Shown: one piece after another, positions 3,401-53,388 of the stretch | Numbering within the stretch: position 1 is the stretch's first letter | Layout of the letters: each line of letters begins with the position of its first letter | From: Candidatus Woesebacteria bacterium | Lineage (GTDB): Bacteria; Patescibacteriota; Microgenomatia; UBA8517 | DNA: 64,000 nt | Direction: 5' to 3' | NCBI GenBank assembly: GCA_013374855.1 | Contig: CP055308.1 | Span: 532,071-596,070 of the forward strand | Translations under genes and position numbers: made by a program | Notes under the pieces: generated by a model | Told to the model about the DNA's origin: nothing | The model's input: only the letters and a program-made list of their open reading frames with translations | Databases searched by the model: none

Positions 3401-3527
3401 TGGCCTTGAGCATAACAGAAATAATACTTTTTCCTTGATAAGAATAGTGGAGCCACCAGACAGCAGTTGCTTTACACGCTTTGGGATCTATTCTGTTTGT
3501 TTTTTGCCTCAAGATTTTGGTTGGTAG
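465..3527 (+). CDS. Very large (1020 aa) polytopic membrane protein with two GT-C-like modules. The N-module belongs to the RWxxD...FNFFYP / YRFSLVFVRG / FQFPWRF paralog family (YfhO / PTPS-related-like). The C-module has a WDQERDAF (DE-type) motif as in ArnT/PMT-like enzymes
   Basis: One continuous ORF. Residues about 1-560 align motif-for-motif with ORFs 13626, 16124 and 17757, including the terminal beta-rich soluble domain plus TM anchor. Residues about 600-1020 form a second multi-TM block that begins GWDQERDAFVVSEILKGKL. Confidence 0.55.
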   Translation: MRTKVFLYFLKRRVNVFVFFVFLFLTLWLSRYFLEAESFYSHDLDFNLIRSLEAYLSLKEGHFPLRWAGDLNYGCGVPVFNFFYPLVYYLMSFIFVFLGDFLLSWKILVFISLFIGSWFFFLWIKNETKDTLASFGGALIYLLAPYRFSLVFVRGSVEFLAYALLPVIFFLASKILFDKNKCLFKRGFLFSLFLAFYFLSHNIVVLITFPILLLYTLLKLFRERSGNPVFIFFVFTLGFLMSSFFLVPAFLEKAYVRLSIDNVVVDYRNHFPTLGQLLRSRWGYLYSLPGTDDGMSFMLGYPQWLVLSLSFFFAIYYIFKTKERAIVFLKKNFWLFFYLFLSLLSIFLMLPLSSFIWRNINTLQQVQFPWRFLGLTVFLVASLFSYLLVFLRRSFNKRVLYITFVIIFFIGLFGNRNHLRVFPSSVKDYKTFKDNLLRYSTTSMANEILPYGNLAMCSPEEPFSSEGEILDLKRGLTYGSFKVRFDEVPKEKVLFHLGYFPGVYEFTINGRDGVPYSDCEGRVCISSNEFAPFSFVSWKVVQTPVQRFFNLISLFSFFVWIILIFGLYQKRQFWIFLLLMFLFFRLYGLEKKMVFGWDQERDAFVVSEILKGKLTLIGPRVVGPSGFFLPPYFFYILSPFYFLGRGNPQVSLYLFLFSYWILFFVVAYKSFLKSIGRNESLLFVLVWSTLPLAVVVDRIAWNPIFIPLVFIVLLFFHYRYYSTGSVFWFFVLSISYFLGVSFHIQGLFYFPFILNAFLFGGNKVFLKKFFLFIFSAFLVFLPIILFDLRHNFLNFSLIFGFGQNSLVRGGLSDVWSNFVSSFVSLRIGKLSAFVFYLFFLFLNFLLLIRVRLAYKKELLYSLFLILLSFPIVFYFYGFRPSEYYFNFLIPVFVLIFSLAPFVIRPRFARLFLSLVLVVFILWSTLSNLKSVAYYDGESLYFKKRVVGFIKDITENRKYDLSIDSKSGKDAGFYYLLSFYGLEHNRNNTFSLIRIVEPPDSSCFTRFGIYSVCFLPQDFGW

Positions 3528-3563
3528 TTATTTTTTAGTTTCTAATTTGCTAATATAGGAAGC

Positions 3564-4340
3564 ATGAAGAAGGGTGAAATCTTTTTGTCTGTTGTTATTC
3601 CTTGCTATAACGAGGCAGAAAACATTAATCGCGGAGTTTTGGAGGGAGTTTATAACTATTTTAAAGACAAGGATTATTCTTGGGAAGTTTTGGTCTCAGA
3701 TGATGGTAGCAGTGATGAAAGCGTCTCTCTAATAGAAGATAGAATTAGATCTTTGCCTAATTTTTACTTAATAAAGAATTCTCATGGTGGCAAACCGAGT
3801 GCTCTCTTGGGTGGAGTTAAAGTGGCAAGAGGGAAATATGTGCTTTTTACTGATATGGATCAGTCTACTCCAATCTCAGAACTTGATAAACTTATTCCTC
3901 ATACGAAAGATAATGTGGAGGCTGTTATAGGTTCACGGGGTGTAATAAGGAAGGATTTCCCTCTTTACAGAAAAATTGGGGCTGTTGTTTTTATGATGGT
4001 AAGGAGAGTTTTGATTTTGCCGGAGTTGGTTGATACTCAATGTGGCTTTAAACTTTTTAGGTCAGACATCTTGAAGAAGGTCTTTCCCAAATTAGAGTTT
4101 TTTAAGAAAGAGGAAAATCGTGTTGGTTGGGTAGTTAGCTCATACGATGTTGAACTTTTGCACCTTGTAAAAAAAACAGGCGGAAGGATAGTTGAGATTC
4201 CTGTTTTGTGGAAAGATGAGGATAAAAGTAAAACTAAAGGCTCCTCTTTTAAAAGGTACTTCAAAGAATCAAAAGAGATGTTTTTCCAGATATTGAGGGT
4301 TAAGCTAAATGATTGGCGTGGTATGTATAAGGATTTATGA
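3564..4340 (+). CDS. GT2 polyprenol-phosphate glycosyltransferase (DPM1/GtrB/ArnC-like)
   Basis: LSVVIPCYNEAENI...VSDDGSSDES...TDMDQSTP is the classic GT2 DXD / DPM1 architecture. It is about 258 aa and has an AGGAAG 6 nt upstream. Confidence 0.75.
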   Translation: MKKGEIFLSVVIPCYNEAENINRGVLEGVYNYFKDKDYSWEVLVSDDGSSDESVSLIEDRIRSLPNFYLIKNSHGGKPSALLGGVKVARGKYVLFTDMDQSTPISELDKLIPHTKDNVEAVIGSRGVIRKDFPLYRKIGAVVFMMVRRVLILPELVDTQCGFKLFRSDILKKVFPKLEFFKKEENRVGWVVSSYDVELLHLVKKTGGRIVEIPVLWKDEDKSKTKGSSFKRYFKESKEMFFQILRVKLNDWRGMYKDL

Positions 4341-9049: not shown

Positions 9050-9973
9050 ATGCCTATGGCAAAAATAAAAGTCTCCCTTGTTATAAACACTCTAAACGAG
9101 GAAAAGAATATAGTTTCTGTTATTAGGTCTGTAGGTGATTTTGCTGATGAAGTTGTGGTTGTTGATATGGAATCCAGTGACAATACAGTTTCTTTGGCGA
9201 AGCAAATCGGTGCGCGAGTTTTTACACATCCAAGGATAGGTTATGTTGAACCTGCAAGAAATTTTGCTATAGAAAAAGCCAAAGGAGATTGGATTTTTAT
9301 TTTGGATGCAGATGAGAGAGCGAACCCAAGACTTCTTGCCAAACTCAAAAAGCTTATTAGGTATGAAAAACCTGATTATGTTTTGATTCCTCGGAAAAAT
9401 ATTATTTTTGGTAAATGGATTAGGAATTCGAGGTGGTGGCCAGATTATAACATTAGGTTTTTTAAAAAAGGGGCTGTTGTTTGGAAAAATGAAATACATA
9501 GTGAACCAGAGAGGAAAGGCAAAGGAGTAACTCTTTTACCCAAAGAAAAGTATGCTATTGTGCATAGAAATTACTCTTCAGTAAGCGACTATATCCAGAG
9601 AATGGATATTTATTCTTCTATTCAGGCGAAAGAGAAAGTATCTAGTGGTTATAAGTTTAATTTCTTGGATTTATTAGAAAAACCAGCAGCTGAATTTTTT
9701 GGTCGTTTTTTTTCGGGAAAGGGGTATAAGGATGGCGTTCATGGTTTGGCATTAGCCTTGTTGCAAACATTTTCTGAATTGATTATTTATCTTAAAGTGT
9801 GGCAAACTGAAGGTTTTGTTGATGGTGAGTTTGATTTTAAGAGTCTAGATAAGTCTTTAGTTAAGATGGAGAAAGATTTAAACTATTGGCGAGCTGATGT
9901 AAAACTTAAAAAAACTAATAGGTTTTTACAATCATTAATTTTGAAGATTAAGAGAAAATTTAGATTGATTTAA
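9050..9973 (+). CDS. GT2 glycosyltransferase, WaaE/KdtX-like
   Basis: VSLVINTLNEEKNIVSVIRSV..DEVVVVDMESSDNT...ILDADERANP...RWWPDYNIRFFKK is the WaaE-type NEE / DADE / RFFKK motif set. Confidence 0.7.
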   Translation: MPMAKIKVSLVINTLNEEKNIVSVIRSVGDFADEVVVVDMESSDNTVSLAKQIGARVFTHPRIGYVEPARNFAIEKAKGDWIFILDADERANPRLLAKLKKLIRYEKPDYVLIPRKNIIFGKWIRNSRWWPDYNIRFFKKGAVVWKNEIHSEPERKGKGVTLLPKEKYAIVHRNYSSVSDYIQRMDIYSSIQAKEKVSSGYKFNFLDLLEKPAAEFFGRFFSGKGYKDGVHGLALALLQTFSELIIYLKVWQTEGFVDGEFDFKSLDKSLVKMEKDLNYWRADVKLKKTNRFLQSLILKIKRKFRLI

Positions 9974-9980
9974 TAGAAAG

Positions 9981-10901
9981 ATGAATAAAAAAGTTTTTGT
10001 TGTTGTGCTAAATTGGAATAGAGCGGACGACACTTTAGATTGTCTTTATTCTCTTTCTACTCTTATCTTGGATAATATTGATTTAACGGTAGTTGTTGTT
10101 GACAATGCTTCTGTTGATAATTCGGTTGAAAGAATAAAAAAAGCCAGTTTTCCTTTTAAACTTGTTATTTTGGAAAATTCTGAGAACCTTGGTTTTGCAG
10201 GAGGTAATAATGTTGGTATTGAATACTCGCTTAAAGAGGGAGCTGATTATGTGATGGTATTGAATAACGATACGATTGTAGACAAAAAACTTCTTGTCGG
10301 TCTTCTTCCATCTTTTTTTGATAGAAATAAAAAAGTTGGAGTTGTGTCGCCTAAGATTTATTTTTTAAAGGGTTTTGAATTTCATAGGGATAGGTATTCT
10401 GAAGAGGAACTTGGGAAAGTTATTTGGTATGCTGGTGGAAAAATTGACTGGGGTAATGTTTTTGGGAGCAATAGGGGAGTGGATGAAGTTGATAATGGCC
10501 AGTTTGATAAAGAGTCTGAAACCGATTTTGCTACTGGTTGCTGTAGTCTTTTTTCCGCTTTGGCTTTGAGAGAGGTTGGTTTTTATAACGAACGTTATTT
10601 TATGTATTTTGAAGATACTGATCTTTCTGTTCGTTTGAATAAAGCGGGGTATAAGGTCCTATTTAATCCTAGTGGATTAGTTTTCCACAAAGTTGCTCAG
10701 AGCTCTGGAATTGGAAGCGACCTAAATGATTACTTTATTACTAGAAACCGTTTTTTGTTTGGTATGAAATATGCTCCTCTAAGAAGTAAGTTTGCTTTAA
10801 TTAGAGAATCTTTTAGATTATTGGTTAATGGTAGAAAATGGCAAAAGATAGGGGTTGTTGATTTTTATAGAGGGAATTTTGGGAAAGGGTCTTGGATATG
10901 A
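9981..10901 (+). CDS. GT2 glycosyltransferase (rhamnosyltransferase WbbL-like subfamily)
   Basis: VFVVVLNWNRADDTLDCLYSL...VVVVDNASVDNS...YFEDTDLSVR is the GT2_3-type motif set. Confidence 0.7.
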   Translation: MNKKVFVVVLNWNRADDTLDCLYSLSTLILDNIDLTVVVVDNASVDNSVERIKKASFPFKLVILENSENLGFAGGNNVGIEYSLKEGADYVMVLNNDTIVDKKLLVGLLPSFFDRNKKVGVVSPKIYFLKGFEFHRDRYSEEELGKVIWYAGGKIDWGNVFGSNRGVDEVDNGQFDKESETDFATGCCSLFSALALREVGFYNERYFMYFEDTDLSVRLNKAGYKVLFNPSGLVFHKVAQSSGIGSDLNDYFITRNRFLFGMKYAPLRSKFALIRESFRLLVNGRKWQKIGVVDFYRGNFGKGSWI

Positions 10902-13622: not shown

Positions 13623-13625
13623 ATA

Positions 13626-16124
13626 GTGAAAAAGAAACCTTTAGTCTCTCTAGTAATATTAAATTATAATACACGCGAGCTTACTTTGAATCTTATTGAT
13701 TCTATTGAAAAAAGTAGTGATTTTGAGATTATCCTGGTTGACAATAATTCTACAGATGGTTCTTGGGAAAGTTTTAGAGAACTCAAAATTCCAAACTTGG
13801 TCCTTGTTCGTAATAAGGAAAATCTTGGTTTTTCAAAAGGTGTAAATGTTGGTATTAGGAAGGCAAGAGGTGAGTATATACTTCTTTTGAATTCGGATGT
13901 TAAAGTTAAAAAGGGATCAATTTTGGCGCTTGTTGATTTTGCTAAAAAAACTCCAGATGCGGGTGTCGTCGCTCCCAAGCTTATTTTAGGAAATGGCGAA
14001 GTTCAAAAGTCTGTTTTTCACTTTCCAACTATTTGGGGTGCGTTTAAGGAGTATATCTTAAAAATTAAAAATTCTTATGGGCCGTATTTGCCGAAATCTG
14101 AGAAACCACAAGCTGTTGATGTTGTTGTGGGTGCAGCTTTTCTTATCAAACGTGAAGTTTTGGAAAAAGTGGGACTTTTTGACGAGCGTTATTTTATGTA
14201 TTTTGAGGACATAGATTACTGTCGTCGTGTATGGAGAGCTGGTTATAAAGTTTATTACCTACCCGCAGTTTCTATGATCCATTATCATGGACAGAGTGTT
14301 AAAAAAATTGCAAGTCCAGAAAACCAATGGAAAATGCTTATTCCATCAAGCAAAATTTATTTTGGTGTTTTTAGACATTGGGCAATTTATTTCGTTACTA
14401 GGTTTGGAAGCTTAATCGACAAAGTTTTTCAGAATTCTCTTATTAGGATAGTTTTTATTTTAATCATTTTTATTTTTTTGACATTTCCTGTTGTAAGACC
14501 ACTTTTGCGAAAGGGATATTTTTATATGCAAGATGACCTTCAGGCTTTTAGATTGCATCAAATGGATAAATGTTTTAAAGATTTGCAATTTCCGTGTCGT
14601 TGGGTTCCAGATGCTGGCTATCAGTATGGTTATCCTCAATTTAATTTTTATCCTCCCTTCGTTTATTATCTGGGTGAATTAATTCATCTCTCAGGATTTC
14701 AATTTGTGGATGTGGTTAAGATATTATTTATTCTTGGTTATGTTTTTTCTGCTCTGGCTATCTTTATTCTTATTCGTACACTGGTTGGTTTTTGGCCAGC
14801 TCTTGTGGGATCTGTTGTTTATACATACGCTCCATATAAAGCAGTTGAGGTTTATGTAAGAGGTGCGTTAAGTGAATTTTGGTCTTTTGTTTTTTTTCCT
14901 CTTATATTTTGGTCTTCTTACCTCTTAATAAAGACTGATAAAAGGAAATATCTAATTTTTCTTTCTTTATTTTTAGCTTTTTTGTTAACCACTCATGTTT
15001 TAATGTCTATGGCATTTATTGTTCCTTTTGCTTTATGGGTTGTTTTTTGGTTAATTAAAGAGAGAAAGTTTAAGACATCTGTAGTTTTGAACCTTTTCTT
15101 TTCTTTTTTCTTGGCTTTTTGTCTTTCTGCTTTCTTTGTTTTGCCTCTTTTTTTTGAAAGAAAGTTTGTTCATGTGGAGACGATGATAATGGGTTATTTT
15201 GACTATCGAAAGCATTTTCTGGGGATCTATAAGTTGATTTTTGATAGGGATTGGGGTTATGGTTCTTCTGGTTTTCCTGATGAGAAATTAAATCTTTCTT
15301 TGGGGGTAGTTCAATTTTTGTCTTCTGTTTTGATTTTCCTTTATTCTTCTTTTATTTTGTTAAAGTTTAAAAGCGGAAGGGTTAAAAAGCTTTCGCTTCT
15401 TGTTGTTTTTTTGTTTTTTCTATCTTTGGCTAATCTTTTTATAATTCATCCCCGTTCTGTTTTTATTTGGGAAAGATTTCCACTTTTGCATTGGTTTCAG
15501 TTTCCGTGGAGATTTATGACAATAGTTCTTTTTTTAACTTCTGTCTTAATCGGAGTTGGCTTAGTTTTATTTCGTGGAAGAGCCGCGTTTTTAATTGGTT
15601 TTTCAATTTCTGTTTTGGCAATAGTTTTAAATTTAGCTTACTTTAGTCCTAGGGATTGGTATTACGATGTTGATGATAGTACTAAGTTTTCTGGGGAACT
15701 TTGGGAGAAGCAGCTTACGATTAGTATTTTTGATTATTTACCAATTTACTCGGTTTTGCCTCCTTGGGAGAAAGCACCAGAGCTACCTGAAGTTATTGAA
15801 GGTAATGCTAGTTTTAGCTATTACACAAAAGGTAGTCATTATCAGATGGGACGAGTTGATGTTTTGACGAATAATGCTTTGTTGAGAATTCCTTTGTTTG
15901 ACTTTCCTGGTATGAATGTTTTTGTTGATGGGAAAAAGGTACCCCATGTAAATGATAATTGTGTGGGTCAGCGCTATTGTTTGGGGCTTGTTACTTTTTC
16001 TGTATCAAAAGGGAGTCATTTAGTTGAGATAAGATTGCAAGATACGCCGGTGAGAAAGATAGGTAATTATTTAACCTTAATTTCCTTTTGTGCGATAGTG
16101 TTTTTGCTTGTAAAGAAAAGATAA
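13626..16124 (+). CDS. Fusion protein. An N-terminal GT2 glycosyltransferase domain (about 270 aa) is joined to a C-terminal paralog-family GT-C-like membrane domain (YfhO / PTPS-related-like)
   Basis: N-terminus: VSLVILNYNTRELT..VDNNSTDGS..YFEDIDYCRR. C-terminus: FPCRWVPDAGYQYGYPQFNFYPPFVYYLGE, YAPYKAVEVYVRGALSEF, FQFPWRF, then a beta-rich terminal domain plus a TM anchor. It has a GTG start. Confidence 0.65.
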   Translation: MKKKPLVSLVILNYNTRELTLNLIDSIEKSSDFEIILVDNNSTDGSWESFRELKIPNLVLVRNKENLGFSKGVNVGIRKARGEYILLLNSDVKVKKGSILALVDFAKKTPDAGVVAPKLILGNGEVQKSVFHFPTIWGAFKEYILKIKNSYGPYLPKSEKPQAVDVVVGAAFLIKREVLEKVGLFDERYFMYFEDIDYCRRVWRAGYKVYYLPAVSMIHYHGQSVKKIASPENQWKMLIPSSKIYFGVFRHWAIYFVTRFGSLIDKVFQNSLIRIVFILIIFIFLTFPVVRPLLRKGYFYMQDDLQAFRLHQMDKCFKDLQFPCRWVPDAGYQYGYPQFNFYPPFVYYLGELIHLSGFQFVDVVKILFILGYVFSALAIFILIRTLVGFWPALVGSVVYTYAPYKAVEVYVRGALSEFWSFVFFPLIFWSSYLLIKTDKRKYLIFLSLFLAFLLTTHVLMSMAFIVPFALWVVFWLIKERKFKTSVVLNLFFSFFLAFCLSAFFVLPLFFERKFVHVETMIMGYFDYRKHFLGIYKLIFDRDWGYGSSGFPDEKLNLSLGVVQFLSSVLIFLYSSFILLKFKSGRVKKLSLLVVFLFFLSLANLFIIHPRSVFIWERFPLLHWFQFPWRFMTIVLFLTSVLIGVGLVLFRGRAAFLIGFSISVLAIVLNLAYFSPRDWYYDVDDSTKFSGELWEKQLTISIFDYLPIYSVLPPWEKAPELPEVIEGNASFSYYTKGSHYQMGRVDVLTNNALLRIPLFDFPGMNVFVDGKKVPHVNDNCVGQRYCLGLVTFSVSKGSHLVEIRLQDTPVRKIGNYLTLISFCAIVFLLVKKR

Positions 16125-17785
16125 TGAAAAGGATTTTTTTTTGGTTGTCTTTTCTACTATCTTTGGTTTTTGTTTCTTGGCCACTTTTTCGCAGTGGTTA
16201 TTTTACTCACCACGATAACATTCAGATAATTAGAATTTTTGAGATGAGAAGATGTATTTTGGATTTGCAGATTCCTTGCCGTTGGGTACCTGATATGGGA
16301 TATGGGTATGGATTCCCGCTTTTTAACTATTATGCTCCTTCTGTTTATTATTTGGGGGCTATTTTGAGCTTTGCCTTGGGTTATATAGGAGCGGCTAAAA
16401 TGCTTTTTTTCTTAAGTTTTGTTGTTGGTTTTTTGGGTATGTTTGTTTTTTCAAAGTTGTTTTTTGGCTTTTGGGGAGCTTTGGTATCTTCAGTTCTCTT
16501 TACCTATGCTCCATATCGTGCTTTGGATGTTTATGTAAGAGGTGCTCTTTCTGAAATTTTTGCTATTTCTGTTTTTCCACTAGTTCTTTATTATTCTTAT
16601 CAGTTGCTTCAGTTTGGCAGGAAAAGGCATTTTGTTGGATTGGTTATCTCTCTTTCTTTTTTTCTGATAACTCACAATGTGATGGTGATGCTTTTTTTGC
16701 CAGTTGCTGTTTTGTTTTTCATTTTGATGACCTTTTTGGTTGAGAAAAAAAGCCGTCTTATTTCTTTATTTGTTGGATTAGTATTGAGTTTTGGTTTATC
16801 TTCATTTTTTGTTTTACCTGCTTTTTTGGAAAAAAATCTAGTTCAGATCGAATCTATGATTCAAGATGAACTTAATTTTAGAGCTCATTTTGTCAAAGTT
16901 GGCCAGCTTTTTTGGATTAGGGATTGGTATTATGGTGCTTCCCAACCTCAGCAGAATGAAACTATATCATTTCAAGTGGGTTGGCCTCATTGGTGGTTGG
17001 TAGCTGTTTCAATTCCGTTTTTGTTGCGGGAGCTTTTGAAAAGAGGGACTAAGGTTAGTAAGACATTTTGGATTGCTCTCTTGGCGGTTTTTGTTTTTAT
17101 AGTATCTGTTTTTATGACGCATAATAAATCTGCTTTTATTTGGGAGAAAATGGCTCTTTTGAGTTTTGCTCAGTTTCCTTGGAGATTTTTATCTTTGGCT
17201 ATTTTTTCTTCCTCTTTAGTTGGTGGGTATTTATTAAGCTTAACAAGGGGAAATTTGCTAAAATTTGCCTTTGCTTTGATTGTTTTGCTTGCAATTGTCT
17301 TGAATTGGAGATACTTTAGACCTGAAAGGTTTTTGGATATTGATGACGTTAGTGTTTTAGGTGGTGCTTTCTGGGAAGAACAGCAGAAGGGTTCTGTTAG
17401 AGACTATCTCCCAAAGGGTGCAAAAATACCATCTTCTATTGCTCCAACGCGGTTTTCCATAGATACTTCCGATGTTGTTTTGTATGATTTTGACAAATCT
17501 ACGAAAAGTTGGAAATTTAGTGCCAAAGTAGATAAAGAATTGGAGATAGAAATTCCAGTTTTCGACTTTCCTTATTGGAGTGTAAGAATTGGCGATTCTT
17601 TGGTTAACTATAAAGTGGGAGAGAACGGCCTTATGAGGTTAAAGTTACCAAGAGGAGAGTATATTGTTCAGGGTGTTTTACAAGATACGACAATAAGAAG
17701 ATTTTCTAATTTTATATTTCTTTTTAGTTTGACAGCCTTTTTGTATTTATTGAAAAATGGGAAGAGTTTTAAAATTTTTAGATAA
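16124..17785 (+). CDS. Paralog-family GT-C-like polytopic membrane protein (YfhO / PTPS-related-like)
   Basis: IPCRWVPDMGYGYGFPLFNYYAPSVYYLGA, YAPYRALDVYVRGALSEIF, FAQFPWRF. I set the start at MKRIFF, which overlaps the upstream stop (TAATG). Confidence 0.6.
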   Translation: MKRIFFWLSFLLSLVFVSWPLFRSGYFTHHDNIQIIRIFEMRRCILDLQIPCRWVPDMGYGYGFPLFNYYAPSVYYLGAILSFALGYIGAAKMLFFLSFVVGFLGMFVFSKLFFGFWGALVSSVLFTYAPYRALDVYVRGALSEIFAISVFPLVLYYSYQLLQFGRKRHFVGLVISLSFFLITHNVMVMLFLPVAVLFFILMTFLVEKKSRLISLFVGLVLSFGLSSFFVLPAFLEKNLVQIESMIQDELNFRAHFVKVGQLFWIRDWYYGASQPQQNETISFQVGWPHWWLVAVSIPFLLRELLKRGTKVSKTFWIALLAVFVFIVSVFMTHNKSAFIWEKMALLSFAQFPWRFLSLAIFSSSLVGGYLLSLTRGNLLKFAFALIVLLAIVLNWRYFRPERFLDIDDVSVLGGAFWEEQQKGSVRDYLPKGAKIPSSIAPTRFSIDTSDVVLYDFDKSTKSWKFSAKVDKELEIEIPVFDFPYWSVRIGDSLVNYKVGENGLMRLKLPRGEYIVQGVLQDTTIRRFSNFIFLFSLTAFLYLLKNGKSFKIFR

Positions 17786-19433
17786 AAATATCTGGTTATT
17801 GTTAATGTTACTTTCTTTGCCTTCTGTTTTTTCCCTTTTTGCAAGGAGAGGCTATTTTGGTGTTTCGGATGATATGCATGTAGCGTGGCTTTATGAAATG
17901 GTGAGAGTTTTGGAATCTGGTAAATTGCCTCCACGTTTTGTTCCCGATTTGAGTTTTGGTTTTGGTTATCCTCTTTTTAATTTTGTTTTTCCTTTGCCAT
18001 TTTATTTAGGTGCCTTGTTTTATTTTTTGGGTTTTAGTTTGGTGGATAGTACTAAGATAGTCTTGGCTATAAGTTTGCTTTTCTCGTCTTTGTTTATGTA
18101 CTTTCTCTTGAGGAAATTTGTAAACAAATATACTGCACTATTAGGTGGAGTGATTTATCTTTATGCACCATATAGGGCAACTGATGTATATGTAAGAGGT
18201 GCAATTGGGGAGTCGCTTGCTTTTGTTTTTCTTCCCCTTATAGTTCTATCTTTTGTAAATGTTTTGAATTTGGGAAGGAAAAAAAATGGTTTGAGGTGGA
18301 TTGGTTTGGGATCTTTGTTTATTGCAGGGTTGATTTTGTCTCACAATATAACAGCATATATGTTTTTGCCTTTTTTGATTGTTCTTCCTGTATTGTTTAA
18401 AAACAGAAAGAATATATTTTATTTGGTCTTATCTTTTTTGGGTGGTCTTTTTTTATCTTGTTATTTTTGGATTCCGGCTATTTTTGATAGTAAGTTAGTT
18501 AAATATGATACAGTTTTTTCCTATTTTGATCACTTTCCAACATTGAAACAGCTTGTTACTCCTCATTTTGGTTATGGAGCATCTGTTCCTGGTCCTTATG
18601 ATACTATGTCATTTTTTATTGGCGTTCCACAACTTGTGGTTTTATTTTTGGGTTTGTTTTTATTCTTGTTCAATTGTAGGGTATTCTTACAAAAGGAAAA
18701 AACTATTTTTCTCTGGGCACTGGTCTTGTTTTTTGTATCTCTTTTTATGATGAATTATCGATCTAGTTTTTTGTGGAGGATTATTCCTCTTTTAGGTTAT
18801 TTTCAATTTCCTTGGAGGTTCTTAACTTTGATTGTATTTTCTTCCTCTTTGTTTTTGATAGCGTTTGATAGGTTGAAAATTAATAAGTATGTTTTTTTGT
18901 ATTTGTCTTTTGTAATCTCCGCAGTCTCGTATTATGTTTATTTTAAACCAAGTGAATATTTGATGAGGGGTGATAGTTATTATATAAATCGCTATATCCC
19001 AGTACCCCAAGCAAGCTCTGAGTATAAAAAGATATCGGAGGAGTATTTAAGGTTACCTGTTTTAACTCAAAAAAGACCTGAAGATGTTTTGCCGGTTTTT
19101 TTTGGAAATGGTTTTCTTGTTGACAAGATTAATGATATTAATAATTTGGATATTAGAGCAAGAATATTTGTGACGGATAATAATGGGACGATAGTCAACT
19201 TTAGGAAGTATGATTTTCCTGGTTGGGTGGTTATGGTAGATGGAGAGAAGGTTAAACATTTTACTGGTACTCCTTATGGCCAAATTTCATTTTTTGTCTC
19301 TTCGGGTTATCATGATGTTAATATTGTTTTTAAGGAGACTACACGTAATATTTTGTTAAATTTTATATCTTTGTTTTCTTTATTGGTTATTTTTACTCTG
19401 GTTTTTAGAAAAGGGGATAAAGGTGGTTTTTAA
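17757..19433 (+). CDS. Paralog-family GT-C-like polytopic membrane protein (YfhO / PTPS-related-like)
   Basis: PPRFVPDLSFGFGYPLFNFVFPLPFYLGAL, YAPYRATDVYVRGAIGESLAF, FQFPWRF. Confidence 0.6.
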   Translation: MGRVLKFLDKNIWLLLMLLSLPSVFSLFARRGYFGVSDDMHVAWLYEMVRVLESGKLPPRFVPDLSFGFGYPLFNFVFPLPFYLGALFYFLGFSLVDSTKIVLAISLLFSSLFMYFLLRKFVNKYTALLGGVIYLYAPYRATDVYVRGAIGESLAFVFLPLIVLSFVNVLNLGRKKNGLRWIGLGSLFIAGLILSHNITAYMFLPFLIVLPVLFKNRKNIFYLVLSFLGGLFLSCYFWIPAIFDSKLVKYDTVFSYFDHFPTLKQLVTPHFGYGASVPGPYDTMSFFIGVPQLVVLFLGLFLFLFNCRVFLQKEKTIFLWALVLFFVSLFMMNYRSSFLWRIIPLLGYFQFPWRFLTLIVFSSSLFLIAFDRLKINKYVFLYLSFVISAVSYYVYFKPSEYLMRGDSYYINRYIPVPQASSEYKKISEEYLRLPVLTQKRPEDVLPVFFGNGFLVDKINDINNLDIRARIFVTDNNGTIVNFRKYDFPGWVVMVDGEKVKHFTGTPYGQISFFVSSGYHDVNIVFKETTRNILLNFISLFSLLVIFTLVFRKGDKGGF

Positions 19434-28791: not shown

Positions 28792-29652
28792 ATGAGTAGA
28801 TTGTCTGTAGTTTTGGCAACGTACAACGAGGAAAAAAACTTGGGTAGATGTCTTAGTGCGGTAAAGGAAATTGCTGATGAGATAGTTATTGTTGATGGTT
28901 CATCAACCGATAAAACAGTGGATATTGCCAAAAGTTTTGGAGCAAAGGTTGTTGTTTGCGACAATCCTCCAATTTTTCATATAAATAAACAAAAAGCACT
29001 TGATCTGGCTTCTTCTGGTTGGATTTTGCAACTTGATGCTGATGAGGTGGTTACACCACAGCTTGCAAAAGAGATAAAAATGATTATTAGTCTCGATGAT
29101 AGGGAAATTGAGGTGTATCAACAAAATCTTAAGGAAAGAGACTTGTTTTTGCGACATCAAAGGTTAATTGAAGAAAGAGATGGAAAAATAGGGGAGGAGT
29201 CAAAAGAGTTTGCTGGTTTTTTTATTCCAAGGAAAAACTATTTCTTGGGCAAATTTTTAAGATATGGTGGAGTTTATCCTGATGGAGTTATTAGGCTGGT
29301 TAAGAAAGGCAAGGCTTACTTTCCTTGCAAAAGTGTTCATGAACAGATAGTCGTAAAAGGTAGGATTGGTTGGCTGGCAAATCCACTTTTACATTATGAT
29401 TCTCCTACTTTTTCTCGTTATCTAAAGAGGAATTCAAGGTATATAGACTTGATTGTTCAAGATTTAAAAAAACAAAAGGTTAAAAAGAATCTTTGGCAGT
29501 TTTTGAATTATTTTTTTTGGAAACCGTTGTGTTGGTTTTTACTAACAACATTAAGACACAAGGGTATATTAGATGGGTGGCAGGGAATTGTTTTTAGCTT
29601 TTTTTCTGCCCTTCGCTTTCCCAGAGCCTATTTTCGCTATCTCAACCTTTAA
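28792..29652 (+). CDS. GT2 glycosyltransferase, WaaE/KdtX-like
   Basis: LSVVLATYNEEKNLGRCLSAVKEIADEIVIVDGSSTDKT...LQLDADEVVTP. Confidence 0.7.
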   Translation: MSRLSVVLATYNEEKNLGRCLSAVKEIADEIVIVDGSSTDKTVDIAKSFGAKVVVCDNPPIFHINKQKALDLASSGWILQLDADEVVTPQLAKEIKMIISLDDREIEVYQQNLKERDLFLRHQRLIEERDGKIGEESKEFAGFFIPRKNYFLGKFLRYGGVYPDGVIRLVKKGKAYFPCKSVHEQIVVKGRIGWLANPLLHYDSPTFSRYLKRNSRYIDLIVQDLKKQKVKKNLWQFLNYFFWKPLCWFLLTTLRHKGILDGWQGIVFSFFSALRFPRAYFRYLNL

Positions 29653-29670
29653 GGGAGCCTCCTTTAAAGG
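29646..29670. repeat. REP-like 25-bp imperfect palindrome, copy 1 (cctttaagggagcctcctttaaagg), in inverted orientation relative to copies 2, 3 and 5
   Basis: Stem arms CCTTTAAGGGAG / CTCCTTTAAAGG. It sits in the 11-nt gap between the GT2 stop (29652) and the transposase 3' end, which lies on the other strand. Confidence 0.7.
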
Positions 29671-30362
29671 TCAATGGCAATTTTTTCTATTAGTTTTAAT
29701 GATATTGGCTCATTTTCTTCCCCTTCTACAAATTTTTGATAATTTTTGGTTTTTTTGAATTCTGGGGCTATAGATTTTTCAAAGAAGTTAAGTATAATTT
29801 CAGGTTTTAGCCAAATTGTCTTTCTTAATCTTAAATAATCGGCATAAGATGAGTACCAATTTATTAGATCTTTTGTTTTTTCTAATGGATTTTTGTGTAT
29901 GTATCTTGATAAGTGAAGGAGCTGCTCATCATTTTTTATTAGTACAGCTTTATAGTGTCCTTGGAATAATTTGCCCACCCTTTTGTATTTTTTGTTGAAG
30001 TACATAGAATATCTTGTTAATACCGAACGCATAAAGCTCTCCAGTAATCTTTTTTCGGACTGTCTTATTATAAGATGAAAATGATTTGGCATAAGACAGT
30101 AGGCAATTAGATCAACACGTTGATAATAATTTTTTGGCATTCTTGGAATACCTTTAAAGGAGGCTCCCTGCAAGATGAAGGTTTTTTCGATTTTTTCTGG
30201 GGGAGGTGGTTTGGTGAGTGATTCCTTTAGATATTTAAGAAACACTTTGTAATCTTGATCGTCTAAAAATATTTTTCTTTTTTCTACTCCTCTGTTATAT
30301 ACGTGGTAGTAGCTGTTTTCTACATATATCTTAATGGAATTTTTCTGTGGCATGGCCTTCAT
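29664..30362 (-). CDS. IS200/IS605-type Y1 (HuH) tyrosine transposase, REP-associated (RAYT-like)
   Basis: YHVYNRG ... CLMPNHFHLII (HuH) ... GKLFQGHYKAVLI ... SRYIHKNPLE (catalytic Tyr helix). It is about 230 aa and is flanked on both sides by REP-like palindromes. Confidence 0.75.
   Translation of the reverse strand: MKAMPQKNSIKIYVENSYYHVYNRGVEKRKIFLDDQDYKVFLKYLKESLTKPPPPEKIEKTFILQGASFKGIPRMPKNYYQRVDLIAYCLMPNHFHLIIRQSEKRLLESFMRSVLTRYSMYFNKKYKRVGKLFQGHYKAVLIKNDEQLLHLSRYIHKNPLEKTKDLINWYSSYADYLRLRKTIWLKPEIILNFFEKSIAPEFKKTKNYQKFVEGEENEPISLKLIEKIAIDL
30151..30174. repeat. REP-like palindrome, copy 2 (cctttaaaggaggctccctgcaag), located inside the transposase CDS, where it encodes LQGASFKGI
   Basis: Identical over about 30 nt, flanks included, to copy 3. 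Confidence 0.65.
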
Positions 30363-30371
30363 ATTATATTA

Positions 30372-30396
30372 CCTTTAAAGGAGGCTCCCTGCAAGG
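30372..30396. repeat. REP-like palindrome, copy 3 (cctttaaaggaggctccctgcaagg), immediately upstream of the transposase start
   Basis: It begins 10 nt beyond the transposase start codon, at 30362 on the minus strand. Confidence 0.7.
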
Positions 30397-30436
30397 TGGA
30401 ATTATGGTGGATTTATGATTATCATTAGTAAATACA

Positions 30437-31183
30437 ATGGATATTAAAGGAAAAAATGTTTTGATTCTTGGGGCAACAGGTGGTATTGGTAGGCATCTTG
30501 CTTTTGCCTTTGCCTCAAGGGGGGCAAACCTTTTGCTTTCAGGTAGGAGGAAGATGATACTTAGTGCTTTAGAAAGAGAATTAAAAAATTTATCTGTTTT
30601 GGTAAAGACATATTCGCTTGATGTTACAAGAGAAGCTGATTTTGTTTTTTTAACAAGGAAAATTAAAAAAGATTTTAAAAACATTGATGTCTTGATAAAT
30701 GCTTTTGGGGTGGGGGTTTATAAAAGTCTTGAGGAAACAAGTTTTGGTGATTTTAAGAAGTCATTAGATGTAAATTTGAGTGGGGTTTTTCTTTCGATAA
30801 AGTATTTCTTGCCATTTCTTAAAAAATCTCCAAAAGCTTATGTGATAAGTTTGGGTTCGGGCATGGGCAAAGTGGGGGTGGCTAAAAGGTTGGCATATTG
30901 TGCTAGCAAATTTGGTCTTCGAGGTTTGATGCTTTCTCTTGCTAAAGAGTATAAGGGCAAAAATATTAAGTTTTGTCTTTTTACTTTAGGTAGTGTGCTT
31001 ACTTCTTTCGGACCCCTTACTTTGGAAGAGAAAATTGAAAAACAAAAAGAAGGTAAAAATTATTTAGATCCTGTGCAATTGGCAAAGACAATTGTATCAA
31101 AAATAGAAAATGATACTTTGATTGAAGAAACTACTATTTATCCCAAGGATTATTATAAAGAAAGCAAGAAAGGAATAGTTTGA
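30437..31183 (+). CDS. Classical short-chain dehydrogenase/reductase (SDR) family oxidoreductase
   Basis: The N-terminus has LGATGGIGRHLA (TGxxxGxG). YCASKFGLRG is the YxxxK motif. It is about 248 aa. Confidence 0.7.
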   Translation: MDIKGKNVLILGATGGIGRHLAFAFASRGANLLLSGRRKMILSALERELKNLSVLVKTYSLDVTREADFVFLTRKIKKDFKNIDVLINAFGVGVYKSLEETSFGDFKKSLDVNLSGVFLSIKYFLPFLKKSPKAYVISLGSGMGKVGVAKRLAYCASKFGLRGLMLSLAKEYKGKNIKFCLFTLGSVLTSFGPLTLEEKIEKQKEGKNYLDPVQLAKTIVSKIENDTLIEETTIYPKDYYKESKKGIV

Positions 31184-36359: not shown

Positions 36360-36647
36360 TTATTTGAAGCTAACGACTAATTTTGATCCGAGAGCTTTTG
36401 CAATTTTGTTGATCTGATTAATAGAGGGATTTGCGTTCATTGTTTCAATATTTGAGATGATGGCTTGAGAAGTTTTTGCTTTTTTTGCTAGTTCTCTTTG
36501 TGACATTTTTTTCGCTAATCTTTTTTGGATGATAGCTTTAGCCAATAGGTATTTTGGTTCTTCTTTTTCCCAAGCCTTTCTAAAACCTTCGTCTTTGATG
36601 GCTTCGTTGAAATATTGATCAAATGTGTAAATTTTATTTCTTGCCAT
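36360..36647 (-). CDS. XRE-family helix-turn-helix transcriptional regulator (HigA/antitoxin-like), apparently orphan
   Basis: MSQRELAKKAKTSQAIISNIETMNANPSINQINKIAKALG is a canonical HTH_XRE. It is 95 aa. Confidence 0.7.
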   Translation of the reverse strand: MARNKIYTFDQYFNEAIKDEGFRKAWEKEEPKYLLAKAIIQKRLAKKMSQRELAKKAKTSQAIISNIETMNANPSINQINKIAKALGSKLVVSFK

Positions 36648-36722: not shown

Positions 36723-36787
36723 ATCTTTTTCCCACATCTTGAGGCGACTTAAGGCAATTTTTATTTCTTTGTGGGGTTTTGTTTTTA

Positions 36788-36812
36788 CCTTTAAGGGAGC
36801 CTCCTTTAAAGG
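36788..36812. repeat. REP-like palindrome, copy 4 (cctttaagggagcctcctttaaagg). It has the same orientation as copy 1 and is intergenic, upstream of the GT2 gene at 36849
   Basis: Identical 25-mer to copy 1. Confidence 0.7.
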
Positions 36813-36848
36813 TAGTGGTTTTGCGACTGATTAGTTTATAATAGCTTT

Positions 36849-37619
36849 ATGAAATCTTTTCCTAAGATCTCGATAGTTATTCCGTCTTTTAACAAGGTTG
36901 AGTTTGTGGAGGAAACTCTAAGGTCTATTGTTGTTCAAAGATACCCCAACCTTGAGGTTATAATCCAAGATGGTGGTTCTACTGACGGAACTTTGGAGAT
37001 ATTAAAAAGGTATGCTAAAAAATACCCTAAAATTTTTAAGCTGGAAAGTAAAAAAGATAAAGGCCAATTGGATGCGATAAACAAAGGTCTTTCAAAGGCA
37101 AGTGGGGAAATAGTTTCTTTTATAAATGCAGATGATGTTTATGAAAAAGGTGCATTGAAAAAAGTAGCAGAAGCGTATCTTAAAAATCCTGATAGGCTTT
37201 GGTTTGCTGGAAAAGGAAGGGTAATAGATAAAAAAGGAAAAGAAATTGCCAAAATTGCCACTTGGTATAAGAGCTTTCTTTTATCTTTAAATAAAAAATA
37301 TTTAATTCTTGTTCTTAATTATTTGATGCAACCTTCTGTTTTTTTGACAAAGAAGGCTTACCAAAAGTATGGGCCATTTACCGGCACAAAGACTGCGGTT
37401 ATGGAGTATGACCTTTGGTTAAAACTTTTCCAAGTGCAAAAGCCTGTTGTTATACCTTTTTTTCTTTCTTCCTTTCGCCTTTATCCGGGCTCTATCTCGA
37501 CTTCTAAAATAAAGGAAATGATGAAAGAAGATGAAAAAATTGTTAAAAAATACACAAGAAATCCTTTAATAATTTTATTTCACAGAATTCACAATTTAGC
37601 AAGGTCTATTTGGGCTTGA
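36849..37619 (+). CDS. GT2 glycosyltransferase
   Basis: ISIVIPSFNKVEFVEETLRSIVVQRYPNLEVIIQDGGSTDGT...INADDV. Confidence 0.7.
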   Translation: MKSFPKISIVIPSFNKVEFVEETLRSIVVQRYPNLEVIIQDGGSTDGTLEILKRYAKKYPKIFKLESKKDKGQLDAINKGLSKASGEIVSFINADDVYEKGALKKVAEAYLKNPDRLWFAGKGRVIDKKGKEIAKIATWYKSFLLSLNKKYLILVLNYLMQPSVFLTKKAYQKYGPFTGTKTAVMEYDLWLKLFQVQKPVVIPFFLSSFRLYPGSISTSKIKEMMKEDEKIVKKYTRNPLIILFHRIHNLARSIWA

Positions 37620-40257: not shown

Positions 40258-41355
40258 ATGAAAATACTTTATGATTATCAGATTTTTAGTTTTCAAGAGT
40301 ATGGGGGTATCTCTAGGTATTTTTATGAATTGATCAAAGGAATGGAGAAATTAGGCAACGAAGTTTTTATTGATGGAAGGTTTTCTAATAATATTTTTTT
40401 GCCCAAATTAAAAGGTGGGGTTAAAAAATTTTTGCCTGATTATAAATTGCCATATAAAAATATTTTGTTATTTTATCTTAATAGATTTTTGGACGGTGAG
40501 AGATTGAAGAAAGGGAATTTTGATATTTTTCATCCTACTTATTATCATCCTTATTTTCTTCCGTTGCTAAAAGGCAGACCTTATGTGGTTACTGTTTTTG
40601 ATATGACTCATGAATTGTTTCCTGATAAATGTGGTGGTTTTATAAAGAAAACCTTAGAGTATAAGAGAAAGGTTGTTTTGGGAGCTAATAAGATTATTGC
40701 AATATCTGAAAGTACAAAAAATGATTTAATTAGATTATATGGTTTATCTAAAAGTAAGATAGAAGTCATATATTTGGGTAATCCATTGGAAGGAGTAAGA
40801 CCTTTAAAGGTTCCATCTCTGCCAGCGAATTACATTCTTTATGTTGGTAATCGCTCCGGTTATAAAAACTTTTTGTTTTTTGTGGAATCTATATCGACCA
40901 TTCTTATTAGAGAGAAAGATCTTTTTCTTGTGTGTGCCGGGGGTGGTGATTTTTCTAGCCAAGAGAGTAAATTGTTTTCTAAGTTGGGAATTCTTGGGAA
41001 AGTAAAACAAGTAAGTTTTAAAAGTGACAGAGAATTGGCTTATATTTACAAAAAAGCCAAAGTTTATGTACTTCCTTCACTATACGAAGGTTTTGGTCTA
41101 ACTGTTTTAGAGGCTTTTTCTATGGGCTGTCCTGTTATTGCAAGTAACAGAAGTTCTATACCTGAAGTTTGTGGAAAGGCTGCTGTCTATGTAAATCCAG
41201 AGGATAGAGAATCTATAAAAATAGCTGTTGAAAAAGTTTTGTCGGATGAAGATGTTAGAAATCATATAGTTTACTTAGGTTTTTTAACATTAAAGAGATT
41301 TTCTTGGGCCAAAACTGTTACAGAAACGTTGAATGTTTATAAATCTCTATGTTAG
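40258..41355 (+). CDS. GT4 glycosyltransferase
   Basis: VYVLPSLYEGFGLTVLEAFSMGCPVIASNRSSIPEV. I set the start at the internal ATG (MKILYDYQIF). The ORF as given begins at 40138. Confidence 0.7.
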   Translation: MKILYDYQIFSFQEYGGISRYFYELIKGMEKLGNEVFIDGRFSNNIFLPKLKGGVKKFLPDYKLPYKNILLFYLNRFLDGERLKKGNFDIFHPTYYHPYFLPLLKGRPYVVTVFDMTHELFPDKCGGFIKKTLEYKRKVVLGANKIIAISESTKNDLIRLYGLSKSKIEVIYLGNPLEGVRPLKVPSLPANYILYVGNRSGYKNFLFFVESISTILIREKDLFLVCAGGGDFSSQESKLFSKLGILGKVKQVSFKSDRELAYIYKKAKVYVLPSLYEGFGLTVLEAFSMGCPVIASNRSSIPEVCGKAAVYVNPEDRESIKIAVEKVLSDEDVRNHIVYLGFLTLKRFSWAKTVTETLNVYKSLC

Positions 41356-52035: not shown

Positions 52036-53388
52036 ATGGAGGAAAAACATATTTTCAGAAATGTTTATTTTTTGTTTGCTTTTTATTTGGTTTTTTGTTT
52101 GTTTTTTCTTGGTCTTATTAGATTCACTGCTTGGCCGGAAATGCTTGCTTGGCCTTATCTTATTTTGAAAGGTTGGTTGCCTTACCGTGATATAGCAATA
52201 GCCCATAATCCATTACTTTTGCTTGATGTTTCTTTGTTTTACAAAATCTTTGGTGTTGGAGTTGTCCAGCTTAAATTTTTTACTTGGCTTCTTTTTTCTC
52301 TTGCTGCTCTTATTCTTTTTTGGGTGGTAAAAGATTTGTGGGGGAAAAGAGTTGCCTTTTTCTCTGTTGTTTTTTATTTTCCTCTTTTTGTTTTTTATGA
52401 AGGGAATGGTCTTTGGTTTGATTTTTATATGGGTATTTTTGCTTTTGCCTCTTTTTACTTTGCACAGAAGAAGGAATTTTTTTGGGCAGGTGTTTTTTGG
52501 GGTCTTTCTTTTTTGGCAAAACAGACCGCTTTTTGGTTTCTTTTACCTCTTGTATTGATGCTTTTACCTTTAAAGGAGGCTCCCCTAAAGGTAGGGAAGG
52601 TTATGCTAGGAATGGCTTTGGTCTTAGGGTTATTTTTCATTGGGCTTTTTTATTTTGGAATTTTTTCTGATTGGTGGAATTGGGCTTTTAAGTTTGGGGT
52701 TTTGACCTTGCCTCGACTTTCAGGACAAATTCAGCTTCCAACATTAAGACAATTTTTAATTTCTCTTTTACCATTTTCTATTTTTGTTTATCTTATTTTA
52801 AATTACAAATATAGATTCACAAATCTTTTTTTGTGGGCTGTCGCTGGTTTGATGGGAGTTTTTCCAAGGTTTGAGTTTTTCCATTTTCAACCGGCGCTTT
52901 TTTATCTTTCGATAGCTTTGGCTTTGGTTTTTTCGAAGAAACTACCAGTAAAAAATTATAAATTTATGCTTTTTTATTTGTCTTTTTTGGCGCTTGTTTT
53001 TGGGAGATTTTTATTTTCCAGTTTTAAACAAGAAACTCGTTTTTATGAAAAAAGTGTACAAGAGGTACAAAATGAAGTTTCAAAGATTGTTGCACCAGGA
53101 GAGAAAATTTATATTGTTTCCTATTGGGATAGTCTTTATGCTTTAACTGATACTCTTCCTGCAACAAAGCCACTTGTGCCTTTTATTCCTTGGTATTTAA
53201 AACTTAATGGAGTTGAAGAGAAAATATTGAAAAGTCTAGAAGAAGAAAAACCAAAAGTTATGGTTGCTTACTATCCATCTATTAAAACAGGTCTGATACA
53301 CAGGTCTGATTTGATTGAAGAATTTATAGATAAAAATTATTATGAAGAAGAGTGGTTTGGGGAAGTTTTTGTTTTTGTAAGAAAATGA
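52036..53388 (+). CDS. Polytopic membrane protein, GT-C-like, carrying an in-frame REP-like insertion
   Basis: It has about 11 TM segments. REP copy 5 encodes LKEAPLKVG in a loop at residues 178-186. Confidence 0.45.
   Translation: MEEKHIFRNVYFLFAFYLVFCLFFLGLIRFTAWPEMLAWPYLILKGWLPYRDIAIAHNPLLLLDVSLFYKIFGVGVVQLKFFTWLLFSLAALILFWVVKDLWGKRVAFFSVVFYFPLFVFYEGNGLWFDFYMGIFAFASFYFAQKKEFFWAGVFWGLSFLAKQTAFWFLLPLVLMLLPLKEAPLKVGKVMLGMALVLGLFFIGLFYFGIFSDWWNWAFKFGVLTLPRLSGQIQLPTLRQFLISLLPFSIFVYLILNYKYRFTNLFLWAVAGLMGVFPRFEFFHFQPALFYLSIALALVFSKKLPVKNYKFMLFYLSFLALVFGRFLFSSFKQETRFYEKSVQEVQNEVSKIVAPGEKIYIVSYWDSLYALTDTLPATKPLVPFIPWYLKLNGVEEKILKSLEEEKPKVMVAYYPSIKTGLIHRSDLIEEFIDKNYYEEEWFGEVFVFVRK
52567..52591. repeat. 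REP-like palindrome, copy 5 (cctttaaaggaggctcccctaaagg), in frame inside CDS 52036..53388
   Basis: It is the same 25-mer family as copies 1-4. Confidence 0.65.

Follow-up and report, generated by a model that had tools for sequence, protein, structure and literature searches.

A REP-associated transposase-like gene flanked by, and containing, copies of a short hairpin palindrome in Candidatus Woesebacteria

A 64,000-nucleotide stretch of contig CP055308.1 (assembly GCA_013374855.1, positions 532,071 to 596,070 of the forward strand) from a Candidatus Woesebacteria bacterium, hereafter the window, carries on its minus strand a gene for a transposase-like protein (29664..30362) with a short palindrome at both ends and a further copy in frame within the coding sequence. 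The unit is best read, with a probability of roughly 0.7, as a domesticated unit of the 'REPtron' type (REP, repetitive extragenic palindromic sequence), that is, a gene for a Y1 HUH enzyme together with a short hairpin palindrome that the enzyme would recognise. The layout is common to most of the related genes sampled from the Candidate Phyla Radiation (CPR) and, as far as these loci can tell, represents a form of a known system specific to the lineage and not an oddity of one genome. Its most distinctive feature is the in-frame copy within the gene, which encodes a predicted surface beta-hairpin of the protein.

Identity of the enzyme

The open reading frame (ORF) encodes 232 amino acids, but the true start is probably Met4 (30353), giving a protein of 229 residues, as the homologues all begin with MPxKNS. 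The three motifs that an earlier, sequence-only reading of the window had singled out are present on the minus strand: YHVYNRG at residues 19-25 (nt 30288-30308), the HuH motif NHFHL at residues 93-97 (nt 30072-30086), and the catalytic-tyrosine motif RYIHKNP at residues 153-159 (nt 29886-29906), with Tyr154 encoded by 29901-29903. The Pfam model Y1_Tnp (PF01797), proposed at the time as a check, matches the protein with 38.6 bits (E=1.4e-9; cut-off 23), though over residues 82-158 only, because the palindrome insert within the gene splits the N-terminal part of the domain. The NCBIfam equivalog model NF047646 (REP_Tyr_transpos) gives 48.7 bits (E=6.9e-13), which is under its curated cut-off of 80.

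The AlphaFold2 model, for which 62 homologues served as input, has a predicted local distance difference test score (pLDDT) of 88.3 and a predicted template-modelling (TM) score (pTM) of 0.86. Its top Foldseek match in the PDB is 4ER8_A (E=4.4e-7, target-normalised TM score 0.66), the E. coli REP-associated transposase in complex with a REP hairpin; the runner-up is the ISDra2 protein 2XO6 (9e-4), and the IS200 and IS608 transposases also rank behind 4ER8. A sequence-profile search of the PDB sequences found no relative, and the kinship with 4ER8 is visible by fold comparison alone. The alignment of the 62 homologues shows the HuH histidines, the catalytic tyrosine and the N-P of the Y motif to be invariant; within YIHKNP this holds for Y, H, N and P, which is the Y---NP form and not the Y---Q form of IS200. 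No tnpB gene is present. Judged from sequence and modelled fold together, the protein belongs to the Y1 HUH enzymes and, among these, to the REP-associated (Y...NP) type. Its signature (NHFH, LFQG, YIH(K/L)NP, SS in the tail, about 230 residues) fits class 2, subclass 2.1, an assignment made by motifs and not with the hidden Markov models of Quentin et al. 2018, the study from which the criteria for class 2 (Y---NP) and for the canonical REP foot (GT[AG]G) were taken (PMC6006769).

Palindrome copies within the window

The palindrome, a 25-mer of the form CCTTTAAAGGAGGCTCCC..AAGG, occurs in five copies in the window at up to 3 mismatches, where 0.00 are expected from 100 dinucleotide shuffles, and relaxing the scan of the window to 6 mismatches yielded no further copy. 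It is the sole discrete short-repeat family of the window and reaches about 29 nt (TACC...GGTA). The 5' flanking copy (30370..30398, core 30372-30396, plus strand) stops 9 nt short of the first ATG of the ORF and 18 nt short of the conserved Met4, within the 74-nt gap that separates the enzyme ORF from a divergent gene for a short-chain dehydrogenase (SDR). The 3' flanking copy (29644..29672, core 29646-29670, minus strand) is inverted relative to the 5' copy and holds the TAA stop codons of two convergent genes, that of a family 2 glycosyltransferase (GT2) at 29650-29652 and that of the transposase-like gene at 29664-29666. The sequence-only reading was right that the 25-mer stands at both gene ends in inverted orientation, but its consensus has to be amended, since the flanking copies differ at positions 20-21 (TA vs GC), and it had overlooked the remaining three copies.

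The first of these, the internal copy (30149..30177, core 30151-30175, plus strand), lies in frame inside the enzyme gene and is identical to the 5' copy at 24 of the 25 core positions. The other two are dispersed: one is intergenic (36786..36814, core 36788-36812, minus strand), 35 nt upstream of a GT2 gene (36849..37619), and the other (52565..52593, core 52567-52591, plus strand) is in frame in the ORF of a GT39/PMT_2-type membrane glycosyltransferase (52036..53388), where it encodes LPLKEAPLKV. The element is near-symmetric and orientation calls therefore rest on few positions; the flanking pair of the window shows 5 mismatches when read as direct and 2 when read as inverted repeats. Folded as single-stranded DNA, the 3' copy and both dispersed copies reach -6 to -7.7 kcal/mol, with -6.7 kcal/mol for the 3' copy, a value reached by 0 of 200 shuffles, and -7.7 kcal/mol for the intergenic dispersed copy. 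An Rfam scan of the whole window gave zero matches, so that the palindrome is not a known RNA family, and a scan for promoter and terminator consensus sequences found nothing over chance, nor is there a T-run after the 3' palindrome on either strand.

Two further observations concern the surroundings of these copies. An isolated self-complementary 12-mer, ACCTTTAAAGGT, at 40800-40811 inside a plus-strand ORF has the outer stem without the palindrome centre; it may be a relic or a coincidence, and one extra CCTTTAAAGG match is within chance (0.28 expected). A small ORF of the XRE helix-turn-helix type (36360-36647, minus strand) adjoins the intergenic dispersed copy, and relatives have AbiEii/DUF6922 and 23S_rRNA_IVP genes in the same cluster.

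A bracket shared by related loci

An intact unit of this kind had been thought unusual for CPR on first inspection. Instead, there are more than 7,800 homologues at 90% clustering, with 406 clusters of 50% identity at E<=1e-30; the few homologues with a source name are Woesebacteria, and the other named hits and loci are Microgenomates or Patescibacteria. The comparison drew on 80 metagenome loci and several long contigs; of the 68 complete genes, out of about 70 homologous metagenomic loci, 61 have a 5'-flank palindrome that matches the 3'-end palindrome. The 5' copy mostly ends 5-25 nt ahead of the ATG, and the 3' copy often includes or abuts the stop codon. Most of the related genes also have internal copies that keep the reading frame, usually one or two per gene, and these fall at either or both of two hot spots: (i) residues ~50-64, before the HuH strands; (ii) residues ~150-173, just after the Y motif. 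The internal site used in the window recurs in homologues in which the internal copy and the flanking copies match each other, and a subfamily with a helical linker has no copy at the first site and often one at the second.

The palindrome varies between genomes (centres include GGAGCCTCC, GGACAGTCC, GGTCCAACC, GGCGAGGCC and GGGGAACCC), and the copies of one locus agree with each other, often across 25-30 nt. A gapless alignment of 97 copies shows G13, G14, C20 and C21 to be invariant and A11 and T23 to be conserved in more than 90%, which gives a core of A-x-GG-N5-CC-x-T with a stem of up to 13 bp and foot columns that are not conserved. When a 14-pair stem is scored, 84.5% of the cells are paired, compared with 63% in shuffles and 32-51% with a slid partner column, and two-sided changes are found in 325 cells against 122 +/- 8 expected, a covariation statistic that is inflated because the set was picked partly for palindromicity.

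Inverted hairpin doublets, for which the sequence-only reading recommended a search, do exist in some related genomes, and the window has single copies only. These doublets, which resemble REP doublets forming hairpins (REPINs) or bacterial interspersed mosaic elements (BIMEs), were seen at 9940-9995 of locus L092 and near gene ends also in L014, L020, L023, L047, L052, L057, L065, L074, L077 and L079. In L053 and L077 the 5' and 3' flanks of the gene share 30-60 nt beyond the palindrome. Many family representatives (P0244-P0390) are long forms of 340-470 residues, with an extra C-terminal region that is absent from the window protein.

The copy inside the reading frame

On the gene strand, the internal copy encodes I-L-Q-G-A-S-F-K-G (ORF residues 63-71) and lies 22 residues ahead of the HuH motif. 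The AlphaFold2 model places this segment, as a beta-hairpin with strands at model residues 57-61 and 64-68 (ORF residues 60-64 and 67-71), between helix A and the HuH strands. The nearest homologues keep F-x-L-Q-G-x-x-F-K-G, in which both x of G-x-x-F are free, and it is for these two free residues that the variable centre of the DNA palindrome codes. Internal copies (n=31) have 10.5 of 13 complementary positions, compared with 6.6 expected for the same peptides under the codon usage of the gene itself, and 28 of the 31 lie at or below 5% under synonymous randomisation; the internal copy of the window is weaker, with 8 against 5.6 expected (6%). The self-complementarity of the internal copies exceeds what the peptide needs and reflects a constraint at the DNA level. 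The notion that an internal copy is peculiar to the window gene was rejected, since such copies are family-wide.

A rather unlikely extension is that the in-gene copy may be a working part of the system and not a tolerated passenger. Protected because selection on the protein holds it in place, it would serve as a master copy from which hairpins in the flanks and elsewhere are refreshed, whether through strand exchange catalysed by the enzyme or through local gene conversion. The idea would account for an observation made both in the window and in a pair of related contigs (P0134 and P0069): the 5' copy repeats the asymmetry that coding imposes on the internal copy, both having TTGCAG (Leu-Gln), and the copies dispersed elsewhere form perfect hairpins. 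A stronger form builds on the translation of the hairpin, whose variable apical bases specify the two turn residues that vary in the beta-hairpin of the protein; were that beta-hairpin in contact with the DNA loop, the specificity of the enzyme and the sequence of its substrate would be physically linked within a single stretch of DNA.

Copies away from the gene

Counted with the core of each locus itself, the 429 kb of related flanks contain 11 copies at a distance from the gene, approximately one per 39 kb, and 4 of them are within long ORFs. Dispersed copies carry the gene-linked variant in the window, L088/L090, L062, L071 and L030. The palindrome of the GT39-type protein occupies a variable loop, and homologues of this protein (~50% identity) bear palindrome-derived peptides in the same loop (LPLKVRPLKG, PPLKGNPLKV and LPLKEAP). 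The palindrome in the GT39 loop of P0134, AAAGGGGAACCCCTT (core GGGGAACCCC), led to the prediction that the linked enzyme reads QGEPFKG; P0069, from the same sample, has QGEPFKG and, in its 5', internal and 3' copies, the exact core as ACCTTGCAGGGGGAACCCTTTAAAGGT. The two contigs are in syntenic clusters and are not proven to be a single genome. Another genome (L092/L094) has a GT39 orthologue without palindrome and was of no use for this covariation check. In a Patescibacteria contig (L004), the linker between the domains of Fmt (gene at 1492-2520, minus strand) contains a palindrome of the window type in frame, and an enzyme paralogue (3131-3787) about 600 bp from the fmt gene is flanked by a different palindrome, which implies more than one enzyme-hairpin pair per genome.

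It is conceivable, although we consider it unlikely, that the palindromes are mainly cis-regulatory, acting as an operator for autorepression or as RNA hairpins that mask the ribosome-binding site and stabilise or terminate the transcript, and that the dispersed copies are incidental relics. The placement of the flanking copies suits this explanation, because the 3' arm (AAAGG) of the 5' copy, so close to the start in most loci, stands at the Shine-Dalgarno position, the 3' copy lies over or against the stop codon, and a promoter-like match upstream of the 5' copy, itself not above chance, would put that copy in the 5' untranslated region. The low copy number and the lack of insertion polymorphism between genomes of 93% identity are also in line with it, and transcribed REPs have been discussed as RNA elements (PMC3733652). 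However, a purely local regulator has no need of in-frame copies in unrelated genes (the GT39 loop and the Fmt linker) that share the genome-specific core, the two in-gene hot spots are hard to account for as operators, and the enzyme retains all of its catalytic residues. Regulatory and substrate roles are not mutually exclusive.

Genomic context and mobility

The divergent SDR gene (adh_short; 30437..31183, plus strand) marks the fixed position of the unit and is a neighbour conserved in 5 relatives, L088, L092, L013 and L102 among them. The convergent GT2 gene (28792..29652, plus strand) has its last two codons and stop inside the 3' palindrome; the enzyme gene has the orthologue of this GT2 gene directly beside it in L088 (79.9% identity) and L100, and a GT2 neighbour is found also in L011. 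The order adh_short, enzyme gene, GT2 is kept among relatives at 57-69% identity; across the wider family, SDR is upstream in just 2 of the 42 loci with enough upstream sequence, and the SDR and GT2 neighbours are kept among the closer relatives only. One exact homologue was read on 24 contigs, all of which place it in the same surroundings. Identity to the nearest homologue is 87% and to most of them 58-69%, with no near-identical multi-copy members. Comparison of ~15 kb with a relative of 93% nucleotide identity revealed no insertion polymorphism: the GT39 copy is at the same place and there is no other copy difference. The single context, the synteny and the lack of insertion polymorphism imply that the gene is not transposed as a whole and that hairpins seldom insert at new sites. 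The gene is probably domesticated, single-copy and vertically inherited, which agrees with the suggestion of the sequence-only reading that it is domesticated rather than mobile.

A different explanation, and a very improbable one, is that the 755-bp unit constitutes an IS200-like insertion sequence, autonomous and moving whole, with its terminal hairpins as the left and right ends. Its size, its single tnpA-type gene and subterminal hairpins that are mostly direct (15 of 20 loci), like the ends of IS200/IS605, would fit such an element, as would the variation of neighbours across the wider family and the presence of two paralogues on some contigs (L042, L062 and L071). These paralogues, which are divergent and lie within ~7 kb of each other, are nevertheless just 31-43% identical to the query, and the second one of L062 has its own, different flanking palindrome. 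The levels of identity among the homologues, the one context on 24 contigs and the synteny among relatives likewise speak against an insertion sequence, and so do the Y...NP motif (class 2, RAYT-like, where RAYT denotes a REP-associated tyrosine transposase) in place of the Y...Q of IS200 (PMC6006769 Table 1), the fold nearer to 4ER8 than to the IS200, IS608 and ISDra2 transposases, and the lack of tnpB. Chance resemblance, or a purely local and functionless duplication, to which the mere five copies within 23 kb of each other might point, is refuted by the shuffles (0 copies expected), by the same architecture with different palindromes in 61 of the 68 homologous loci, and by the compensatory changes in the stem.

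The wider surroundings of the unit are those of one long cell-envelope glycosylation cluster (GT2, GT4, GT39/PMT_2 and polysaccharide synthase genes). The window has 32.5% G+C and is covered to ~93% by ORFs of at least 180 amino acids, nearly all on the plus strand, the transposase-like gene being one of the few on the minus strand. It includes three tandem paralogous ORFs (13623-19433, ~1.65 kb apart, repeat families D1 and D3), and a tRNA scan of the window found no gene.

A putative enzyme-hairpin partnership

The reading of the unit as a domesticated REPtron-type pair draws on what was observed here: how the unit is laid out, its fold, catalytic residues that stay conserved, a bracket found family-wide, two hot spots in the gene, covariation in the stem, copies that agree within a genome, and a fixed context; binding, cleavage and the route that keeps the copies alike are steps that we infer. 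By analogy with E. coli TnpA_REP and with the TnpA proteins of IS608 and ISDra2, a dimeric enzyme would bind the hairpin in single-stranded DNA and, with the HuH metal site and Tyr154, would cut and rejoin the DNA beside the hairpin. All copies of a genome would be kept matched to one genome-specific variant by this activity or by selection for recognition by the enzyme, and new copies would arise rarely.

Several points weigh against this reading, in addition to the inflation of the covariation statistic. Recognition and cutting of the hairpin by any member of the clade are supposed by analogy. Canonical REPs have a guide tetranucleotide, GT[AG]G, that is missing from the hairpin, the window copies having (T)ACC...GGT(A). 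The flanking copies, unlike those of classical REPtrons, are direct in 15 and inverted in 5 of 20 related loci. The copy number is low, with 2 dispersed copies in the 64 kb of the window, one of them intragenic, and the exact 18-mer core is never multi-copy in 185,579 representative genomes, which yielded 6 single hits and do not include the source genome. Contigs L098 and L100 are from the same sample and have syntenic clusters, and are not proven to be one genome. The hairpin folding anticipated for the 25-mer applies to the three copies given above, whereas the 5' copy (-3.7 kcal/mol) and the internal copy (-1.4 kcal/mol) fold no better than shuffles, because one arm is TGCAAG instead of TTAAAG; going by these predicted energies, some copies need not be substrates.

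What the sequence-only reading had called a complete RAYT-REP unit in the classical configuration can thus be upheld in part. A Y1 enzyme gene is bracketed by its own palindrome, which is also found elsewhere in the window, but the configuration is not the classical one, given the missing foot, the sparse repeat, the NCBIfam score of 48.7 against 80, and the predominance of direct flanks among related loci.

Significance

REP-associated transposases are widespread and their service to the cell is unsettled. The present clade is a stripped-down case, with tiny, densely coding genomes and seemingly few hairpin copies, in which the hairpin pairs a near-invariant core with a genome-specific centre, and copies at fixed orthologous sites (in the gene of the enzyme itself and in other proteins) still follow the genome-specific variant. 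These three traits make the matching of enzyme and hairpin directly testable with sequence data and a small recombinant protein; copy correction and parallel selection are the candidate ways of keeping the two matched. Moreover, a motif class earlier reported to be REP-less does bear hairpins in CPR, and in-frame hairpin insertions have shaped a conserved beta-hairpin of the enzyme. Annotators should avoid labelling such genes as active transposons.

Comparison with known systems

REPtrons, among them that of E. coli YafM (PDB 4ER8), have reportedly been treated by Nunvar (2010), Bertels and Rainey (2011), Ton-Hoang (2012) and Messing (2012). The window unit is similar to a REPtron in its Y1 HUH fold, its HuH and Y...NP motifs, a single-copy gene in a fixed context, and a gene bracketed by a short hairpin repeat that is found elsewhere too and is specific to genome and enzyme. 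It is different in that it has no 5' GT[AG]G foot, very few dispersed copies are seen compared with the hundreds of classical cases, its family usually has direct flanking copies, and the host lineage is CPR. The window protein is, in addition, longer (227-232 residues), has a C-terminal tail containing SS and FQ in place of WQ/WE, and scores below the NCBIfam equivalog cut-off. Elements of the IS200/IS605 type are set apart from the window gene by multiple near-identical copies per genome, by Y---Q and often by tnpB.

REPtrons and the coevolution of REPs and RAYTs are established (PMC6006769), as is the decay of REPINs after RAYT loss (bioRxiv 10.1101/2021.07.10.451892), and intragenic REPs are known (PMC3733652). 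A search of the literature on RAYTs in CPR or Patescibacteria found no relevant paper. REPs within genes cannot be claimed as new to science, since subclass 2.4 was already reported to have them in frame within tnpA_REP genes (Quentin et al. 2018, PMC6006769). In this subclass (Bertels group 4), as in the window family, the cognate REP lies within the transposase gene, leaves the frame intact and affects a peripheral part of the protein. In the window family, however, one internal site precedes the HuH strands (helix A to strand 2) and the other follows the Y motif. Subclass 2.4 is further characterised by WQ, YIxNNP, REPs with a GTAG 'double foot', a median length of 194 residues and occurrence in Cyanobacteria and Bacteroidetes, whereas the window family has FQ and YIH(K/L)NP, with LFQG and YIHKNP in the window protein, and hairpins without GTAG.

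Short palindromes in proteins are not confined to such enzymes. The Rickettsia palindromic elements of Ogata et al. (2000), of which RPE-1 is the best known, are longer, at about 100-150 bp for RPE-1, and are not known to have a cognate enzyme. Both these elements and 'REP-decorated' proteins (PMC3733652) resemble the cases described here in that short palindromes sit in frame in permissive loops or linkers, here those of GT39 and Fmt, but the window insert is small, at ~9-10 residues, and corresponds to the repeat that belongs to a linked Y1 enzyme. TIRYT (Di Nocera 2013; PMC3733652), which goes with subclass 2.1, is alike in that the flanking repeats can overlap the gene ends and form small families, and unlike in having terminal inverted repeats with GGGGWSAS and not AAGG-N5-CCTT hairpins.

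The motif class that fits is subclass 2.1 (Bertels group 1; PMC6006769 Table 1), which shares NH[YF]H, FQ, Y[IV]HLNP, the SS tail, a length of ~238 residues and low copy number, but has been reported without nearby REP-like hairpins. Across the loci compared, the clade of the window gene is different from the described systems in combining a motif class reported as REP-less with an AAGG-N5-CCTT core without GTAG foot, internal sites before the HuH and after the Y motif, flanking copies that are usually direct, a very low copy number and a different host lineage.

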